From: a virus
Taxonomy: Duplodnaviria; Caudoviricetes
Virus record (IMG/VR): IMGVR_UViG_3300042260_000337
Length of the DNA: 64,000 bases
Reading direction: 5' to 3' (one strand)
Shown here: positions 23,218-47,231 of the stretch, one piece after another
Numbering within the stretch: position 1 is the stretch's first letter
How the letters are laid out: the number at the start of each line of letters is the position of its first letter
Program-made: the position numbers and the translations under genes
The notes under the pieces: generated by a model
What the model was told of the DNA's origin: nothing
Databases searched by the model: none
What the model saw: the letters and a program-made list of their open reading frames with translations, nothing else

Positions 23218-23309
23218 TGGCGGAAGTGGTAGGATTTGAACCCACGGAACGCTCTCACGTTCGTCCGCTTTCAAGGCGGATGCAATCAGCCAGACTCTGC
23301 CACACTTCC
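23218..23309 (-). tRNA. trnS: tRNA-Ser(UGA)
   Basis: cloverleaf with long variable arm, anticodon loop CUUGAAA, encoded CCA. Confidence 0.95.
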
Positions 23310-23765
23310 GTTATTCTTATTCTTGGCTTTATAGGTAGGCAATTGACTATCGCAATTACTACACACAAACCTCAAATTTTCTAACCTATTATCATTATTT
23401 ATCCCATTTATATGATCTAGGATAAGTGGCATTGGCTTTCCATTCCATAGTGGACCAATGCCACAACAATCACACATATAAGGAATCATTTTTTGATCAA
23501 TAATTCTTTTTTTCAGTCTATGCCTTGCATACGTAGATTTTTCTACAAATACGTCTTCGTCGCATCGGCGTATGGATTGTTGATAGTCAGTTAGTTCTAT
23601 ATTCTTTCCCTTGTTCCAAGGGATATTGCCTTTTTTTACCCCTGCATTTGGGCTTCTCACTGCCTTGACACGATCTGGATTATCTTGGCAGTGTTTTTCG
23701 TGTCTTGCGTTTGCACCAATGTTACTTGTTTTTCTGGAACAATATCTACAAATATAAATATTCAT
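23286..23765 (-). CDS. HNH homing endonuclease with Zn-binding N-terminus
   Basis: CDCCG...LILDHINGINNDNRLENLRFVCSNCDSQ; late motif GATAAATA at 23829-23836; stop codon lies inside tRNA-Ser. Confidence 0.85.
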   Translation of the reverse strand: MNIYICRYCSRKTSNIGANARHEKHCQDNPDRVKAVRSPNAGVKKGNIPWNKGKNIELTDYQQSIRRCDEDVFVEKSTYARHRLKKRIIDQKMIPYMCDCCGIGPLWNGKPMPLILDHINGINNDNRLENLRFVCSNCDSQLPTYKAKNKNNGSVAESG

Positions 23766-24113
23766 ACTGGAAATCTCCCTTTGAATTTCTAGAGTAGATG
23801 GGAACGGCAATTCCGCGATCTACACTATTATTTATCAAAGTAGTAACAAACCAACGCGATAAACCCAATAGGGTAAAATGCATATTTATTTATCTTTGTT
23901 ACAAGACTGATGGGTATAAACATGCAAAAACCCGATTATGTTATACGCATATTATAGAGGCCATCAGCGTAATCTGCATTCGAAGTGCAGCACGACTTAC
24001 GGGCATAGAAGCGATTCATATAACCCTCTAATTTATATCAGTATCAACGAGGATTGATACCAGTGATACTGCCACTCCTAACTCCAAAATGTTAGGCGGC
24101 AGTCACATATAGT

Positions 24114-27827: not shown

Positions 27828-28523
27828 TTACGGGCTTTCACTCCCTGTATTCTTTTCTTTGGTCCACTGAACTATTGGATTTAAGTCTTTACCAGCCAGG
27901 GAATCTCTATTCAACTTATTTTCATAAGTGAGGGAAATCGGGCTTAAATCCTCATTAAAAAAGTGTTTACTCGTTACTTTAATCCACTCATTGAACTCTT
28001 CATCGTTTTCATACACAATCTTGTTGTGCGAAAACTTGTTACTAAACATACTCTGAACTGGTTCGTATCTAAACATACCCAACAAGAACTTTGCTTGATT
28101 GATTGCGTGTTCTTGTCTTCCGTATCTTTCGCCGTATACGGAATAGTAAGACTTTCCGCAGTCGGAACAAGTTACATATTTCTTTCTGAGTAAGTCTGAT
28201 ATTGACAGATTATACCAAAACTTTTCAATCTTGTCAAATCTTTTTCCTTGTAGAAATGCTAACGCAATCGTCAACGATCTATATTCTTGTGCAAGATAGT
28301 GATGTTTATTATTCAGGCAAGCAGCTACACCTTCGTGTCTTATACCTAACTTAGCAAGGTAATGGCCACCTTTGTTATCACTTCCAAGTTTGTGTCCATG
28401 TTCGCGTTGGTATTTGTGACCAGTTTTGTAATAGCCGCTTCTATCTTTTTTGAGTTCTTTGATTGATTTTTCCAAGAACTCTTTTCTATGTTGCAGTTTG
28501 ATTTTGGTTTCGTCAATATTCAT
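27828..28523 (-). CDS. hypothetical protein
   Basis: 231-aa ORF, ATGA coupling to the upstream gene. Confidence 0.7.
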   Translation of the reverse strand: MNIDETKIKLQHRKEFLEKSIKELKKDRSGYYKTGHKYQREHGHKLGSDNKGGHYLAKLGIRHEGVAACLNNKHHYLAQEYRSLTIALAFLQGKRFDKIEKFWYNLSISDLLRKKYVTCSDCGKSYYSVYGERYGRQEHAINQAKFLLGMFRYEPVQSMFSNKFSHNKIVYENDEEFNEWIKVTSKHFFNEDLSPISLTYENKLNRDSLAGKDLNPIVQWTKEKNTGSESP

Positions 28524-28780
28524 TTGTCTTCTCCATTTTGAATCAAAGCCTCATTGGACTCTGTAATACTAAGGTAACAGTTCTTGATTTTAATCGCACC
28601 TTTTGTGTGCGGGTTGTCAGGTGTTTCCTTAGTAGACCACCCTACTTCTGATATGACATGATTAACATAAAAGGTTTGACCTTTTGCTTTAACCACCCAC
28701 ATTGGAATAGTCGGGTCTTCAAGATGTTTTTTGTTGAAGTGAAATACTAACTCGTTGACTTTTGTTTTTTCAATCTACAT
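28520..28780 (-). CDS. conserved small phage protein with in-frame UAG at codon 2 (M*IEKTKVNELVFHFNKKHLEDPTIPMWVVKAKG...)
   Basis: AGAAAGGA SD-ATG(28778-80)-TAG(28775-77), then 84 sense codons in frame with track ORF 28520..28702, whose own ATG lacks an SD. Confidence 0.65.
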
Positions 28781-28889: not shown

Positions 28890-28966
28890 TGGTGGCCCTA
28901 GTGGGACTCGAACCCACGACCAATAGTTTTAGGGACTGCCGCTCTAACCAACTGAGCTACAGGGCC
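28890..28966 (-). tRNA. amber-suppressor tRNA (anticodon CUA)
   Basis: GGCCCUG/UAGGGCC acceptor, GCUC/GAGC D stem, GUGGG-UUCGAGU-CCCAC T arm, A73-CCA; anticodon loop CCCUAAA (atypical C33, one C-A mismatch in the stem). Confidence 0.8.
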
Positions 28967-28974
28967 AATATGAA

Positions 28975-29240
28975 TGAGTGTTTACCCTATCGTTGCTCGG
29001 TATTCATTATGGTAAGTAATGAAATCCCAAGCTATTGTCGGAAGCGTTTGACCTCCACGGTTCATTTGGATACCACCTCGCATTACTTCGCGGTGTTACT
29101 GCCACACTCAGAGGATACATTGATTTCAAGTCCTATACGACCACAATAGAGGCTCTTGCGAGTAGTCTACCGTCTAACCATATAGTGTTCTGCGCGTCTT
29201 TCCAATCCAACCAAGATAAACCCCGTTGGCGGTAGGAACT
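28975..29240 (-). ncRNA. unassigned ~260-nt structured RNA candidate
   Basis: no credible ORF; CUC-GCAA-GAG tetraloop, long-range CUAUUGU/ACAAUAG stem, GC-richer than its surroundings. Confidence 0.5.
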
Positions 29241-29274
29241 CAATGTATCGTCAAAATGTGATTTCATTTTGTCA

Positions 29275-30119
29275 AGGCTGAGATTATACCTTGAGGTGAG
29301 TGCCTTCGGTCATTACCCAATCCCTTGCGAGGATGGTTCTACCTTTATCCACAAGAGTCGTTTCCGATCATCTTGTATCACTCAATGCGGCCTTTGTTAG
29401 AGAGTGGCATTTCTCTCGTCGCATACTGCTATTCATCCTTCCATCTTCCGCCAGCCTTGCGGGCTGTTCAAGGTCGCTAAACCCTTACGTCTTCTGTCCG
29501 AATAATCACGTCCACCTTGCGAGTTTCAGTGAACCATATTCTCTTGCGAGTATGGTATTACGCATCTTTCACAGTATACCGAGGTAGTCTTTCGCTTTTG
29601 TTTCAATAATAGGAGTTGAACCTACAATCGTTCTCTTAGAAGGAGACTGCATTACCATTATGCAATATTGCGAACCTATTTCGATGTGCTACCTCAGTTG
29701 CACCATACCTTGTTAGATACAGTATACAACACACCGACTGTCTTTTGCCTTGCGGGCTACTCAACGTCTTTTCAAGTATCCGGGGCCTAACCCTTCCACT
29801 CTCAAGATGCTACTACGCCTTTCCTTGCAGGGTCAGACAGTGTAGCTACCTGTTAACCTTCAGTATTCGTTAGTTTGGCTGAAAACTGTTCGGACGCCAA
29901 TCCTCTTACCACTCACCGACTGGCTCTGTGGCTATCCTTTCAGACAGTTCTCCTAACTTACTACCTACCGCCTCTCTACAGACGGGACTTGCTTTCGGTT
30001 TAATCCGAGTCAAGTCTGGTTCAGGCTTGTATAGATGGACCATCACTGGCGCAAGTTTATAGGAAACCTTGCTTTGGGCGTATTACTACGCTTACCCTTA
30101 TGGACGCTATACCGCCCAA
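29275..30119 (-). ncRNA. GOLLD-like giant ornate ncRNA (~845 nt)
   Basis: own promoter TTGACT-17-TAGGAT (30127-30155); five or more C-GCAA-G tetraloop hairpins; 3' end ...CUCAAGGUAUAAUCUCAGCCU; sits in a phage tRNA cluster and carries an internal tRNA, as known for GOLLD. Confidence 0.72.
29601..29672 (-). tRNA. tRNA-Arg(UCU)-like domain embedded in the GOLLD-like RNA (probably degenerate)
   Basis: GCAU/AUGC D stem, loop CUUCUAA, GUAGG-UUCAACU-CCUAU T arm; top two acceptor pairs mismatched, no CCA. Confidence 0.6.
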
Positions 30120-30164
30120 TCTCTACATCCTAACTCAATTCCGAAGAAGAGTCAAGGACTTTTT

Positions 30165-30548
30165 TTATTTTTTTGGAACAGGACTGTCAGAAAAGACATC
30201 CGATTTTTCTTTGCTCTTGCCGTTTGTAAGTTTAGTAACTTCAACATTCAATAGCTTTGCAGCCATTGTAATGATTTCCATTTCGGCATCAGTATACGCA
30301 ACAGCTAACATGTTTTCGGCATACGCAGATTCTTGATCAAACTTATGCGGATTAGATTTATCTTTGGATGCAGCAGCCGCAGCAAATGCAACACCCATTC
30401 TATATTGAACATATGGGTCAGTGCTACGGAGTTGCTTGAAGGCAACCATATCAGGTAACGCATCTTTCATTTGGTCAGATACATCCCCTGCTTTGAAGTA
30501 TTCTTTGTTTGCCAAAGATTCAGATATTATGTCACGTATTTTCATCAA
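30165..30548 (-). CDS. late protein with capsid-targeting-like N-terminus
   Basis: MKIRDIISE; GATAAATA at 30570-30577. Confidence 0.7.
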   Translation of the reverse strand: MMKIRDIISESLANKEYFKAGDVSDQMKDALPDMVAFKQLRSTDPYVQYRMGVAFAAAAASKDKSNPHKFDQESAYAENMLAVAYTDAEMEIITMAAKLLNVEVTKLTNGKSKEKSDVFSDSPVPKK

Positions 30549-31252: not shown

Positions 31253-31279
31253 TTTTCAAAGAGCGTGGAACACCGTTCC
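31253..31279 (-). promoter_or_regulatory. rrn-type antitermination leader: boxB-like hairpin plus boxA
   Basis: GGAAC-GGU-GUUCC hairpin followed by GCUCUUUGAAAA (boxA consensus). Confidence 0.6.
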
Positions 31280-31291
31280 GATTACTTGTTT

Positions 31292-31530
31292 CTTATATCA
31301 CGTTCGTTTTTCGTTGTCAAGAACTCTTTTCAACTTTTTTCGTCCGCGTTTCAGTTCCGAGCATCGTTCCTTTGTGTCCCGCTCTATGTTCTTAACTTAG
31401 CAAACTTTGTTTTCTTTGTCAAGAACTTTTTTTCTTTTTTTTCACGGCTGCTTCTGGTTACTAGCCTTAGCCCTTCCGCGATATTCTTAACTTACCAAAC
31501 TCTGTTTGATTCGTCAAGAACTTTTTTCAG
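31292..31530 (-). promoter_or_regulatory. three tandem strong sigma70 promoters with A-tract UP elements driving the tRNA island
   Basis: TTGACG-17-TAAGTT (31489-31517), TTGACA-17-TAAGTT (31394-31422), TTGACA-17-TATAAG (31292-31320), each with an upstream A tract. Confidence 0.8.
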
Positions 31531-31643
31531 GTATCTGGTTCGGCCACCAGCGGGAGAGATTTTTCCCAAAATGTCAGCATACCAGTATCACAAAGAGTAA
31601 CCAGATGCCGCCCGATCTTTATTGCCTTATCGGACTTCCTGAA

Positions 31644-33133: not shown

Positions 33134-34231
33134 TTATTTGTGCTTCATCCCTGCGAGGCGTTGTAGCCATCCCAAGTCGTCGCGTTCAGACTCGAAAACG
33201 AATGTATTCGCTTTCTTGTTGTTGCGTAGGCGGGTGTAGATTTCACCTACCTTTCCTGGTTTCAAAGTGCCTACGTCAAACATTACGCCGCCGTTTGTAT
33301 CATAAACTTTGGCTCCGTCAGTTGTCTTTATCAAGACACCTTCCTGATTGTATTTAGCACCCAGTTGAAGCATTTTTTGTTTGAAATCTTCATCACTGCC
33401 TTTTGGTGCTATAACAAAAATCGAATCTTCTGCTACATGAACTTCCTGTGGTGTTCCAGCATTTTCAATCCAGTATCCATCCACAAAGAAGAACCCATAA
33501 CCAAGTTTTCTTATGGTTGCAGCAAGTTCTTTGTTACGGCGCACATTTTCTTCTCTGTCATATTCACCACGAAATGCAGTCAATAGTGAAATAGGACGGT
33601 CGGATTCTGCATGTTGCCATACACGACTCAAACTTGCTTCATTTAGTTGCTTGTTACTTTCATCAATCTTGGAGACTACCATTTTGACGAAACGCTTACC
33701 ATTCACATTTTTTGGTGGTTCTACTTCCTCAAACGCAAATGCTCGTCCCTTGATGCGACTTAGAAACTCACCAGCGGCACGTCCAAAACGTGCATTACCA
33801 GTAACTATTTTTTCTCCGCGACCAGGAAAATCCGAGTTATTTGTGCCATATAAAAATGCACCTTCTCCACCCTGTGGAATAATCAGAACCGAATCTTGGT
33901 CATAACGTTGACCCAACATAATAATGTCGTTTACGAACTGTTTTGCGTCTTTGCCATTTGGTGCAACGAAAAACGATTCTTCGCCAACTTCTTTTGCGTT
34001 GTCTGTTCCGAAATCTTCAATGTAGTTTCCTTGGATTTTGGTAACACTATACCCTTTTCCAATCATGTATTGCATCAACTCTTTGTTGCGTTCACGGTTT
34101 CGAGCACGAGTATTTCCACCGCGAAATGCAGTGATTGCCGCAGTGGTTTCCTCTTGTGTTTTATCCCATAGCCGAGACAGGCCACTTTCATTCATATTAT
34201 TGTCCATGAGTGTTTTCCTTATTGACGCCAT
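33134..34231 (-). CDS. tandem two-domain SAM lyase-like protein (T3 SAMase/DUF3293-like)
   Basis: two repeats each with TAFR, N..RN.EL, G.(Y/W)IE, (E/A)E(E/D)S.FV and Y.Q(D/E).VL, in the same order as T3 SAMase SAFR, GCYRE, EEKTVRV, EQDCVL; GATAAATA at 34245-34252. Confidence 0.6.
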   Translation of the reverse strand: MASIRKTLMDNNMNESGLSRLWDKTQEETTAAITAFRGGNTRARNRERNKELMQYMIGKGYSVTKIQGNYIEDFGTDNAKEVGEESFFVAPNGKDAKQFVNDIIMLGQRYDQDSVLIIPQGGEGAFLYGTNNSDFPGRGEKIVTGNARFGRAAGEFLSRIKGRAFAFEEVEPPKNVNGKRFVKMVVSKIDESNKQLNEASLSRVWQHAESDRPISLLTAFRGEYDREENVRRNKELAATIRKLGYGFFFVDGYWIENAGTPQEVHVAEDSIFVIAPKGSDEDFKQKMLQLGAKYNQEGVLIKTTDGAKVYDTNGGVMFDVGTLKPGKVGEIYTRLRNNKKANTFVFESERDDLGWLQRLAGMKHK

Positions 34232-44290: not shown

Positions 44291-45025
44291 TCACTTTAGT
44301 TCGTCAATCAACACTGCTCGTTTTACTGAAAGGACCATATCTCCACCGATCATGGCCAAGTAACTTGCGGTTTGTTCATCGTCACATGCAACCGCTAATG
44401 TAGAGTATTGCCAATATCGTCGTTTATCTACCTCTGCAAGATTTGGAGATATGTAGATATTTTCCAATGAAGAAGCCATTTCTCTGAATGAAACCACTTC
44501 TTTAAGATCGACATCGCGACCAGCGATCATCGTAATCTTATAACGATGACGCTCATAATACAAACATTTTCTTACTTCTTCGGTTACGGAAAGTTTTGAC
44601 TTTACTTCGTCATAATCTTCAAATGCTGGCTCACATTCATCTATTGCAAACTCCCTGTAGTTTGCAAAGTTTTTAATTTGCTCATACAGTTCTTTTGACG
44701 TTATATAGATCAACGTATGGATAGAGTCATTGCGAACTTTGATTTCACCCTTGTTTGTCTGTGAAAGTTTTTCTATTTGGTCATGTAATCCTAATCTACG
44801 CGCCAATTCATCTTCTGTTGAAGGGTAATGTCGAACTGTAAAATGAGCACTATATCCAAAACTTCTGTTTTTTTCCGAAGTCATCGTTGATGGATTTAGG
44901 GCGTATTCCAAATATTTGTCATAAAAGTTGAATATAAGTTTAGTTCGTATTCTAAACTTATACTTCTTGTAAAATGGCTTTGTAACGATTTCTTTTTTGA
45001 TTCGTTTATACTTAAACATACTCAA
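44291..45025 (-). CDS. hypothetical protein
   Basis: 244-aa ORF overlapping the clpA stop. Confidence 0.7.
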   Translation of the reverse strand: MSMFKYKRIKKEIVTKPFYKKYKFRIRTKLIFNFYDKYLEYALNPSTMTSEKNRSFGYSAHFTVRHYPSTEDELARRLGLHDQIEKLSQTNKGEIKVRNDSIHTLIYITSKELYEQIKNFANYREFAIDECEPAFEDYDEVKSKLSVTEEVRKCLYYERHRYKITMIAGRDVDLKEVVSFREMASSLENIYISPNLAEVDKRRYWQYSTLAVACDDEQTASYLAMIGGDMVLSVKRAVLIDELK

Positions 45026-47231
45026 ATGTCAATCCTTCCTCATTCACTGAAACATTTACTGTTCCGCCATTGACAAGCCGACCAAACAAAATCTCTTTTG
45101 AGATTGGCTTCTTGATGCTGTCATGAACAACCCGCTGTAGAGGACGTGCGCCCATGTTTGGCTGATATCCCTTATCGCAAACCCAAGACCTTGCTTCGTC
45201 ACTGAGCACAATTTTGATATTCTTTTCTTCAAGCATGGTGTTTAGTTCTTTTACTGCCTTGTCAACAATCATTAGAATATGGTCTTTGTCCAGATTTTTG
45301 AACTCAACCACTGCATCAAGGCGGTTACGAAACTCAGGAGAGAAGAACTTCTCAATCGCAATCTTACTTGCATCATCGTTGCTGTTGCTAAATCCAATCG
45401 CTTGCTTTGAGCGTTGTGCAGCACCAAGGTTAGAAGTCATAATAAGAATGACGTTACTGAAATCAGCAGTCTTACCAGTTGAAGAAGTCAACTTGCCATC
45501 ATCCATAACTTGAAGAAGAAGGTTCATAACACTTGGATGTGCCTTTTCAACTTCGTCAAGAAGAACAATGCAGTTTGGAGTTTCTTCAACTTCATTGATG
45601 AGTTTACCAGAACCAACTCCACCTTCAGCATGTCCGACATAACCAGGAGGTGCGCCAATCAGTTTTGATACTGAATGGGATTCCATATATTCTGACATGT
45701 CATACTTACGCAGCTTGACATTCAGGTTGTCAGCAAGTTGACGACATACTTCTGTCTTACCAGTTCCAGTTGGTCCAACAAACAGGAACGAACCGACTGG
45801 TTTATTTCGTGGTCGCATACCAGCTTTAGCAACAAAGATTGCATCGGTCAATTGTTGAACTGCCGTATCTTGTCCAAAGATTTTTGACTTGATATTATCT
45901 TCTAGCTTTTCGTAATTGGTGTTCTGTTTTGCATCAATCATATCAAGAGAGATATTCGCAATTTTTGAAATTGCTTTGCGAATTTCATCATCGGTGATAC
46001 GGTCAGTAGTCTTATGCAGCTTTGCTTGTGCGCCCGCTACGTCAATAACGTCAATAGCACGGTCTGGGTTGAACCTGTTGAAGATGTATCGTTCTGCCAA
46101 GTCAACGGCTAAGTCAAGAGCACTATCATCATACGATACATTATGAAATGCCTCGTAGTATTCGCGCAACCCACGAAGGATTAGCTTAGTGTCGGCATTG
46201 CTTGGTTGGTCAATATTCAGACGCTGGAAACGGCGCTGTAGAGCACGATCCTTTTCAAAGTTCTCACGGTATTCTTCACTGGTAGTTGCACCAATACAGT
46301 GCAGCTTTCCACTTGCCAACAATGGTTTTAGAAGGTTTGCAATGTCAATGTTAGACCCGCCAGCATTACCAGCGCCCATAATCATATGGATTTCGTCAAT
46401 AAACAGAATTGCGTTGTCTTTTTTGGCAAGTTGGTCAAACACAATCTTGGCACGTTCTTCAAACTCGCCACGATATTTGGTTCCCGCAACCATTGCAGTC
46501 ACGTCAAGTGAATAGACAACCTTGTCTTCTAGGGTGTGCGGAACTGTTCCTTCCACAATCATAAGGGCAAGACCTTCTGCGATTGCAGTTTTACCAACCC
46601 CTGGTTCGCCAACAATAATGACATTGTTCTTCTTGCGACGAGCAAGAACTTCTGCAACTTCTGTAAGTTCACGAGTGCGGCCAACGATTGGGTCAATTAG
46701 ACCTTCTGATGCTTGGCGGTTTAGGTTGGTGCAGAAGTCTTCAAAGCGAATTTGTTGATTTCCACCACCTGAAGCACCCTGTGGAGATAGACCAGCCGCC
46801 GCATTGTGTTCATTTGTAATAATTTCAATTGCTTTGTTGCGGTCTGCACCATGCTTCTTCAATACGAAGTATGCATAGGAGTTCTTTTCACTCAGTAAAG
46901 AAATAAAGATATCTTTGCATACCAGTTTTGTGCTACCAGAGAAGATAGCTTGTGTCACAGCACGGTTGAATACGCGGTCAAGGGCAAGTGTTTTTCTTGG
47001 TTCATGCCCATTTGCATTTGGAATGTCATCGCGTTCACGCAAAAAGGTTTCAAGGTCTGAAACGATAGAACCAACATCTACTCGCATCTTATTGAGGAAG
47101 GCTATTACATCATCTTCTTCCAGAATTGAATAGAGAAGGTGTTCCAAAGTCACGTATTCATGTGCAAGTGCGGTCGCTTTTTGAATTGCACGTTCAATGG
47201 AAAGATTTACACGGTCAGGTTGGTTGCTCAT
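45012..47231 (-). CDS. clpA: ClpA-type Hsp100 AAA+ chaperone
   Basis: Clp N-domain HEYVTLEHLL; two Walker A (GEPGVGKT, GPTGTGKT), Walker B LFIDEIH and LLDEVEKAH; 739 aa with no ClpB M-domain. Confidence 0.92.
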   Translation of the reverse strand: MSNQPDRVNLSIERAIQKATALAHEYVTLEHLLYSILEEDDVIAFLNKMRVDVGSIVSDLETFLRERDDIPNANGHEPRKTLALDRVFNRAVTQAIFSGSTKLVCKDIFISLLSEKNSYAYFVLKKHGADRNKAIEIITNEHNAAAGLSPQGASGGGNQQIRFEDFCTNLNRQASEGLIDPIVGRTRELTEVAEVLARRKKNNVIIVGEPGVGKTAIAEGLALMIVEGTVPHTLEDKVVYSLDVTAMVAGTKYRGEFEERAKIVFDQLAKKDNAILFIDEIHMIMGAGNAGGSNIDIANLLKPLLASGKLHCIGATTSEEYRENFEKDRALQRRFQRLNIDQPSNADTKLILRGLREYYEAFHNVSYDDSALDLAVDLAERYIFNRFNPDRAIDVIDVAGAQAKLHKTTDRITDDEIRKAISKIANISLDMIDAKQNTNYEKLEDNIKSKIFGQDTAVQQLTDAIFVAKAGMRPRNKPVGSFLFVGPTGTGKTEVCRQLADNLNVKLRKYDMSEYMESHSVSKLIGAPPGYVGHAEGGVGSGKLINEVEETPNCIVLLDEVEKAHPSVMNLLLQVMDDGKLTSSTGKTADFSNVILIMTSNLGAAQRSKQAIGFSNSNDDASKIAIEKFFSPEFRNRLDAVVEFKNLDKDHILMIVDKAVKELNTMLEEKNIKIVLSDEARSWVCDKGYQPNMGARPLQRVVHDSIKKPISKEILFGRLVNGGTVNVSVNEEGLTFEYV

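Follow-up and report, generated by a model that had tools for sequence, protein, structure and literature searches.

The tRNA-Arg(UCU)-like domain in the linker of a viral GOLLD RNA is probably a tethered tRNA mimic from a homologous pseudo-tRNA lineage

The window analysed here, a stretch of 64,000 nucleotides of viral DNA, encodes a GOLLD RNA whose variable linker contains a tRNA-shaped domain labelled Arg(UCU). Our results favor the view that this domain is probably a tethered tRNA mimic and not an excised decoding tRNA, a reading that rests on comparison of sequences. A survey of 88 GOLLD loci shows that the linker 'tRNAs' of this GOLLD clade, as judged from their alignment, form one homologous pseudo-tRNA lineage. 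Taken together, the survey, homology and covariation results show that selection keeps the three arms and the elbow of the domain, but not its acceptor end or the identity of its anticodon.

GOLLD RNAs, reportedly described by Weinberg et al. in 2009, are among the largest structured RNAs of bacteria and phages; they form RNA-only cages and have no known function. They occur in phages and prophages near tRNA islands, with tRNAs 'sometimes present' in the linker (10.1101/2024.12.08.627333). Cages have been solved by cryo-EM as a 14-mer for the env-38 GOLLD and as a 12-mer for the GOLLD of S. agalactiae (10.1101/2024.12.08.627333; PMC12990946), and the variable linker, which is unresolved in the structure, points into the cage (10.1101/2024.12.08.627333).

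That the interval studied here is a GOLLD RNA is practically beyond doubt. An Rfam scan of the whole window matched RF02032 (GOLLD) on the minus strand at 193.3 bits, against a gathering score of 150 bits (E 6e-53, model positions 1-416), and the covariance-model match was reproduced on the whole contig, where it is the sole GOLLD in 102.7 kb. The first-pass annotation, which had called the interval a GOLLD-like giant RNA, was thus borne out by this check; the elements it listed are all present, but their orientation had to be corrected to the minus strand. The Rfam model spans only the conserved 3' domain and leaves the 5' domain outside. In a BLAST search with the upstream 423 nt, homology with the 5' domains of more than 40 other GOLLD loci began consistently at ~30118, and comparison with other GOLLD loci placed the conserved start of the RNA at AGAGAUUGGGCGG. 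Taking the 3' end from the model and the 5' end from the start of homology gives a full-length RNA of ~845 nt (Table 1), in agreement with the limits of 29275-30119 that had been proposed.

The remaining features of the RNA agree with membership of the family. Next to the 3' domain, which scores above the gathering threshold, there is a 5' domain of ~400 nt, bringing the total length near or above 800 nt; a helix backed by covariation surrounds the variable linker; and the setting is that of a phage near tRNA genes (a viral contig, with 17 tRNAs in the window). An ORF search of the interval found none longer than 95 aa, consistent with the earlier remark that no credible ORF is present. The multiple C-GCAA-G tetraloops that had been noticed are also real, as the RNA strand contains five copies of the CGCAAG motif in its 845 nt, where the frequency in the rest of the window would predict 0.16 (P about 8e-7).

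Table 1. Coordinates of the GOLLD RNA and its parts in the window
Feature	Position	Strand	Basis or remark
Full-length GOLLD RNA, ~845 nt	29275..30121	-	Rfam model end, BLAST homology start, conserved AGAGAUUGGGCGG
Variable 5' domain of GOLLD	29738..30121	-	68-88% identity with 5' domains of GOLLD on other viral contigs
Conserved 3' domain of GOLLD, including linker	29275..29737	-	RF02032, 193.3 bits
Promoter-like site, TTGACT-17 nt-TAGGAT	30127..30155	-	Consensus scan, position before conserved start
Bracketing helix, 5' arm CUGAGGUAG	29689..29697	-	Pairs with 29579-29587, covariation
Leader CACAUC...AUAGGUU before tRNA-like domain	29673..29688	-	Nearly invariant whatever the anticodon label; CACAUCGA forms the 3' strand of Rfam's first helix
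tRNA-like domain, Arg(UCU) label	29601..29672	-	D, anticodon and T arms intact; acceptor top open; no CCA; U at position 20
'Anticodon' UCU in CUUCUAA	29638..29640	-	ARAGORN; UAUG (8-nt loop), UGA or CUU in closest homologues
GOLLD core trailer CAAAAGCGAAAGA, directly abutting discriminator base	29588..29600	-	Invariant in alignment
Bracketing helix, 3' arm CUACCUCGG	29579..29587	-	Covariation with 5' arm

A dedicated sigma70 promoter had also been proposed, and here the result is mixed. A consensus scan did find a promoter-like site with an A-rich tract upstream, ending ~6 nt before the first base conserved with other GOLLDs, and from its sequence and position a promoter of its own is plausible for the GOLLD of this window. 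Shuffled sequence, however, yields such motifs at least as often (3 found, 4.0 expected), and the region upstream of the GOLLD start is not conserved in relatives. Since several of these relatives have a tRNA directly upstream, an own promoter is not a family-wide feature. At the other end, a scan found no terminator-like site after the GOLLD 3' end, so that transcription may read through into the downstream tRNA. The 308-nt gap between the two (28967-29274, minus strand) has no credible ORF; Rfam returned nothing for it even with E values up to 1, and other GOLLD loci show no conservation of it. One further CGCAAG hairpin lies in it (29155-29160). The tRNA beyond the gap (28893-28966, minus strand) has the anticodon CUA, of amber-suppressor type and labelled 'Pyl' by ARAGORN, with an intact acceptor stem and an encoded CCA.

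The window belongs to an IMG/VR viral contig of 102,689 bases for which CheckV gives a completeness of 27%, implying a genome of roughly 380 kb, and related GOLLD loci are found on contigs of 280-608 kb; the genome that hosts this GOLLD is that of a large marine phage, probably a jumbo phage. Rfam and ARAGORN find the 17 tRNAs of the window all co-oriented with GOLLD, one of them inside the GOLLD match. Genes typical of large phages are present as well (DNA polymerase, DNA methyltransferase, exonuclease, SAM lyase, ClpB-like ATPase and HNH endonuclease). The SAM lyase domain is fused to DUF3293 (33134-34231, minus strand) and is probably anti-restriction, and the phage-encoded ATPase is a ClpB/Hsp104-like double AAA+ protein (45012-47231, minus strand). 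The HNH endonuclease ORF lies inside the tRNA array (23286-23810, minus strand); an association of tRNA array, GOLLD and HNH has been described for mycobacterial tRNA clusters (PMC6582537). Pfam gave no match for the flanking ORFs 30165-30548, 27828-28523, 28520-28702 and 31265-31600, nor did PHROG for the two of them that were scanned (30165-30548 and 27828-28523), and no CCA-adding or RNA-repair gene was found among the window ORFs scanned.

The embedded element is a 72-nt cloverleaf called as a tRNA by both the Rfam tRNA model and ARAGORN (Arg, UCU), as had been noted from the sequence; its score with the former, 46.3 bits, is below that of every other tRNA in the window. The D, anticodon and T arms are complete, and the anticodon, with C35 and U36, sits in a canonical 7-nt loop that has U33 and A37; the discriminator base is A73. 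Its acceptor end is different. As the first-pass annotation had observed, the top two acceptor pairs are broken and CCA is lacking: C1.A72 and G2.A71 are unpaired, leaving five of seven pairs where all 16 other tRNAs of the window have seven, and the trailer reads CAAAAG where CCA is encoded in 16/16 of the others, although CCA addition after transcription would still be possible. A20 is a major identity element for bacterial ArgRS. In the D loop of the embedded element (AAUGGUA) a U follows GG, which places U at position 20, whereas the free Arg(ACG) and Arg(UCG) tRNAs of the contig read GG-A. A20 is found in 15 of 19 free Arg tRNAs overall; among six embedded Arg-labelled elements, only that of roseophage MD18 has it.

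The tRNA-like domain lies between the arms of a 9-bp bracketing helix in which CUGAGGUAG pairs with CUACCUCGG. Across 37 distinct homologues 99.3% of the cells are paired, with compensatory changes in four of the eight pairs tested. The closing helix of the earlier description is thus present and covaries. Since the bracketing arms also enclose CACAUCGA, the 3' strand of Rfam's first helix, the arrangement is a pseudoknot rather than a plain loop.

The comparison was extended to other viruses. Distant blastn revealed GOLLD in the roseophages MD18, DSS3_MAL1 and DSS3P8, and the core motif just 3' of the linker retrieved 85 further stretches from viral contigs; the survey covers 88 loci, and 12 of 13 sampled loci passed the Rfam GOLLD cut-off. 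ARAGORN places a homologous tRNA-like domain at the same linker position in 47/88 loci. In 46 of these 47 the embedded element ends 2-6 nt before AAGCRAAAG, and the linker measures 86-100 nt, again in 46/47; another 31 of the 88 loci have a linker of at most 75 nt and no tRNA. The presence of the domain goes along with tRNA arrays, the median number of free tRNAs per kb being 1.08 in loci with the domain versus 0.00 in loci without it; where an element is embedded, every one of the 505 free tRNAs has the orientation of GOLLD. In several lineages the domain has been cut down to two small hairpins or lost, which indicates an accessory module, dispensable for GOLLD as such.

The defects of the window's element recur throughout the survey. 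A seven-pair acceptor stem is found in none of the 47 embedded elements but in 515 of 595 free tRNAs of the same loci, and CCA is encoded in 3/47 and 563/595, respectively; the loci are interrelated and were fetched with one motif, so that P values for these contrasts overstate independence, but their direction is unambiguous. De-replication to 20 clusters at 80% identity left an intact acceptor in 0/20 and CCA in 1/20. The anticodon loop has 6 or 8 nt in 8 of the 47 embedded elements, while a loop of other than 7 nt occurs in only one of the 595 free tRNAs. The GG of the D loop and the TTC of the T loop are kept by all 47.

A second class of GOLLD was also encountered (e.g. L006, L008 and L015), with a linker of 48-62 nt, the bracketing arms CUCCCGAAG/CUUCGGGCG and higher Rfam scores, at 290-307 bits; these short-linker RNAs have no linker tRNA and almost no tRNA genes nearby. 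In a metagenomic viral contig a group I intron match at the Rfam threshold (L060, 3523-3744) lies ~2 kb from GOLLD.

Two sets of observations bear on the common origin of the embedded elements and on selection for their shape. First, conservation of the leader (CACAUC...GUAGGUUCGCAA) and of the trailer (ACAAAAGCGAAAGACU) does not depend on how the anticodon is labelled, and the bodies between them resemble each other across labels. Identity with the body in the window is 84% for the element of locus L014, where the loop is CUUAUGAA (8 nt), 76% for a 'Ser(UGA)' element and 65-71% for 'Lys(CUU)' elements. Elements labelled 'Ser' or 'Leu' measure 71-76 nt and have no long class II variable arm, whereas free Ser tRNAs measure at least 84 nt. 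Secondly, when 37 distinct linkers are aligned, pairing reaches 99.2% over the bracketing helix and the D, anticodon and T stems taken together, and 15 of the 21 pairs show compensatory changes; pairing in slid controls is 28-49%. We also considered whether the embedded body is a copy of a neighbouring tRNA. This was rejected, as the identity between an embedded body and the free tRNA that shares its anticodon within a locus is only 0.35-0.71, the background mean being 0.51. A kissing loop between a conserved GOLLD segment and the anticodon loop was likewise rejected (no 8-nt position bin is common to more than 3 of the 20 distinct loops).

According to the mechanism we propose, this GOLLD, located inside a co-oriented tRNA array, may be transcribed from its own sigma-70-like promoter, possibly with read-through from upstream, and by homology with the solved GOLLD RNAs 12-14 copies would assemble into a cage with the variable linker pointing inward. 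What is labelled 'tRNA-Arg(UCU)' is the local version of the linker domain present in about half of the surveyed GOLLDs, and not an inserted tRNA gene. Selection keeps the D, anticodon and T stems and the elbow loops, leaving the three 'anticodon' bases to drift freely, and the acceptor end, never fully paired and without CCA, runs into invariant GOLLD sequence. The domain would stay covalently tethered, one per subunit, lining the interior of the cage, where it would engage something that recognizes tRNA shape: the ribosome, a tRNA-processing or tRNA-modifying enzyme, or a tRNA-targeting nuclease. Excision, charging with arginine and decoding of AGA would not take place. A more specific version is that of a purpose-built mimic, with 12-14 copies exposed on the inside of the cage, whose elbow and anticodon arm catch the ribosome or bait a host defence nuclease that targets tRNAs, with diversifying selection and not neutral drift behind the rapid turnover of anticodons on a conserved scaffold. 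We offer this version tentatively and hold it to be rather unlikely.

The first-pass annotation had suggested a structural or decoy domain rather than an excised working tRNA, and that suggestion is supported: the homologous linker lineage is acceptor-defective, CCA-less and drifting in its anticodon, and A20, a determinant for ArgRS, is absent from this copy. The opposite reading nevertheless keeps some support. It holds that a functional tRNA-Arg(UCU) is stored or caged in GOLLD, freed by RNase P and a 3' nuclease, provided with CCA by the host, charged, and used to read AGA. The canonical anticodon loop and A73 agree with this, and a C1.A72 mismatch alone is tolerated in bacterial initiator tRNA, but in the window's element two acceptor pairs are open, CCA is missing, both being intact in all 16 neighbours, and U20 stands in place of A20. 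The element is the only AGA/AGG decoder among the 37 tRNAs of the contig, in which Arg(ACG) and Arg(UCG) have free-standing genes, and 24% of the Arg codons in its long ORFs are AGA; the contig, however, holds ~27% of the genome, so that a free Arg(UCU) may sit elsewhere, and two close relatives, with a 5' domain 86% identical to that of the window, have two free Arg(UCU) genes and an embedded element with an aberrant loop. More generally, 10 of 14 large arrays also contain a free tRNA with the embedded anticodon, whereas duplicates among free tRNAs are rare. The 6- and 8-nt loops of homologues, the 'Ser' and 'Leu' labels without a class II arm, the absence of an intact acceptor stem from all 47 homologues, and a leader and trailer that are invariant GOLLD sequence and not disposable flanks all argue against a working tRNA.

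The stored-tRNA reading has been published as 'inhibited storage', in a 2026 review that cites a tRNA-Phe in J13/15 of a Mycolicibacterium GOLLD (PMC12990946). On the other hand, the 'pseudo tRNA gene' inside the GOLLD of M. aubagnense gave no northern signal although GOLLD itself was detected, and an excised product was thus not detected there (PMC6582537). The roseophages show a pattern that looks complementary. In MD18 Arg(UCU) occurs only inside GOLLD, while DSS3P8 has a free Arg(UCU) where MD18 has Arg(CCU); given this complementarity, A20 in the MD18 copy, and its position as the only UCU decoder in a complete genome, the embedded copy of MD18 may be functional. The functional reading is likelier for MD18 than for the window's member, for which we consider it unlikely.

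A further possibility is that the tRNA-like fold is a processing signal, at which RNase P and/or RNase Z would split GOLLD into halves that stay paired through the bracketing helix, the excised piece having no role of its own. The domain does lie between the two structural domains, the covarying 9-bp helix around it could keep the halves joined, the T arm and elbow recognized by RNase P are kept in 47/47, and a free anticodon would be expected; two-piece tmRNA, which the roseophage GOLLD adjoins, and MALAT1/mascRNA provide precedents. An unpaired acceptor top without CCA is, however, a poor substrate for bacterial RNase P, and compensatory changes maintain the anticodon stem, for which RNase P has no need. 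The domain is commonly missing from GOLLDs, and domain-less env-38 still forms a cage. We therefore regard a processing signal as very unlikely. Least probable of all, and hardly credible, is a decaying relic, now functionless, of a tRNA gene captured in the linker: the linker is the variable region of the family, the domain is truncated or lost in several lineages, and both the drifting anticodon and the defective acceptor would fit decay, but neutral decay is disfavoured by the preservation of the stems (compensatory changes in 15/21 pairs), of the elbow loops (47/47, across 20 sequence clusters) and of linker length (86-100 nt in 46/47).

An alternative closure of the domain was also noticed. 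UUCG (29673-29676, minus strand), just before and overlapping the acceptor start, could pair with CGAA (29590-29593, minus strand) of the invariant AAAGCGAAAG trailer across a 9-nt A-rich bulge, and such a pairing would explain the open acceptor top. The minimum free energy fold, at -28.7 kcal/mol, uses UCGC/GCGA; a cloverleaf that keeps the acceptor stem comes to -21.2 kcal/mol. In 43 of the 47 embedded elements the leader contains TTCG and the R of AAGCRAAAG is G. As neither segment varies within the clade, they yield no covariation signal, and no matching change is seen in the AAGCAAAAG clade.

That GOLLD linkers can contain tRNAs and pseudo-tRNAs has been published before, and the RNA of this window by itself adds nothing categorically new. 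The added value lies in the survey, which shows the embedded linker 'tRNAs' of this GOLLD clade to be one homologous pseudo-tRNA lineage; a single lineage with a drifting anticodon was not found stated in the accessible GOLLD literature, where tRNAs are 'sometimes present'. In phages with tRNA arrays, about half of the surveyed GOLLDs carry the homologous domain, which would face the interior of the cage. That its shape is under selection, and its acceptor and anticodon identity not, argues against simple 'tRNA storage' for most members and points toward recognition of tRNA shape. A mimic displayed in a cage, if true, would provide GOLLD, for which no function has been known since 2009, with a concrete role that can be tested, namely in the struggle for control of translation in the infected cell. 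The cultured pairs MD18/Phaeobacter and DSS3_MAL1/Ruegeria, with DSS3P8 as a natural control without the domain, make the question testable.

Among known systems, the closest parallel is the GOLLD of Mycolicibacterium and Mycobacterium (PMC6582537, PMC12990946), which like that of the window has a tRNA-shaped element in linker J13/15, a published position. The reported 'pseudo tRNA' of M. aubagnense and the element described here are both CCA-less and defective in the acceptor; the window's GOLLD differs from these mycobacterial members in lineage, being that of a marine large phage, and in label, Arg(UCU) as opposed to Phe. The GOLLDs of env-38 and S. agalactiae belong to the same family and share the plan of two domains and a linker, at 833 nt compared with ~845 nt. 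In env-38 the linker is disordered and there is no solved structure with a tRNA-like domain in place; the oligomer of the window's RNA is predicted by homology.

The roseophage GOLLDs (MD18, DSS3_MAL1 and DSS3P8) are ~65% identical to that of the window over the 3' domain. MD18 and DSS3_MAL1, like the window, have an embedded Arg(UCU) with two acceptor mismatches and no CCA, whereas DSS3P8 has lost the tRNA and retains a remnant of ~50 nt. The setting differs as well, as the roseophages have a two-piece tmRNA and then a nucleotidyltransferase gene directly after GOLLD, neither of which is present in the window. This tmRNA is of the permuted alphaproteobacterial type (L001, 3714-4129; L002, 3546-3962; L003, 3635-4021), and a phage-encoded tmRNA of this type directly follows GOLLD in two metagenomic relatives also (L013 and L083). 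MD18 contains in addition a tRNA-Met-like copy (L001, 1575-1650) with two acceptor mismatches and an insertion in the D arm; its 3' half is common to it and the adjacent tRNA-Met, and it looks like a partial duplication or pseudogene.

Beyond GOLLD, the tRNA-like domain of tmRNA, the 3' tRNA-like structures of plant viruses and the mascRNA of MALAT1 resemble the domain described here, insofar as a tRNA-shaped module within a larger RNA is used, in GOLLD probably, for its shape and not for decoding. The GOLLD domain, which retains its anticodon arm and elbow while its acceptor end is closed off, is the reverse of those mimics, which keep a functional acceptor end that is charged or processed, often without a true anticodon arm.
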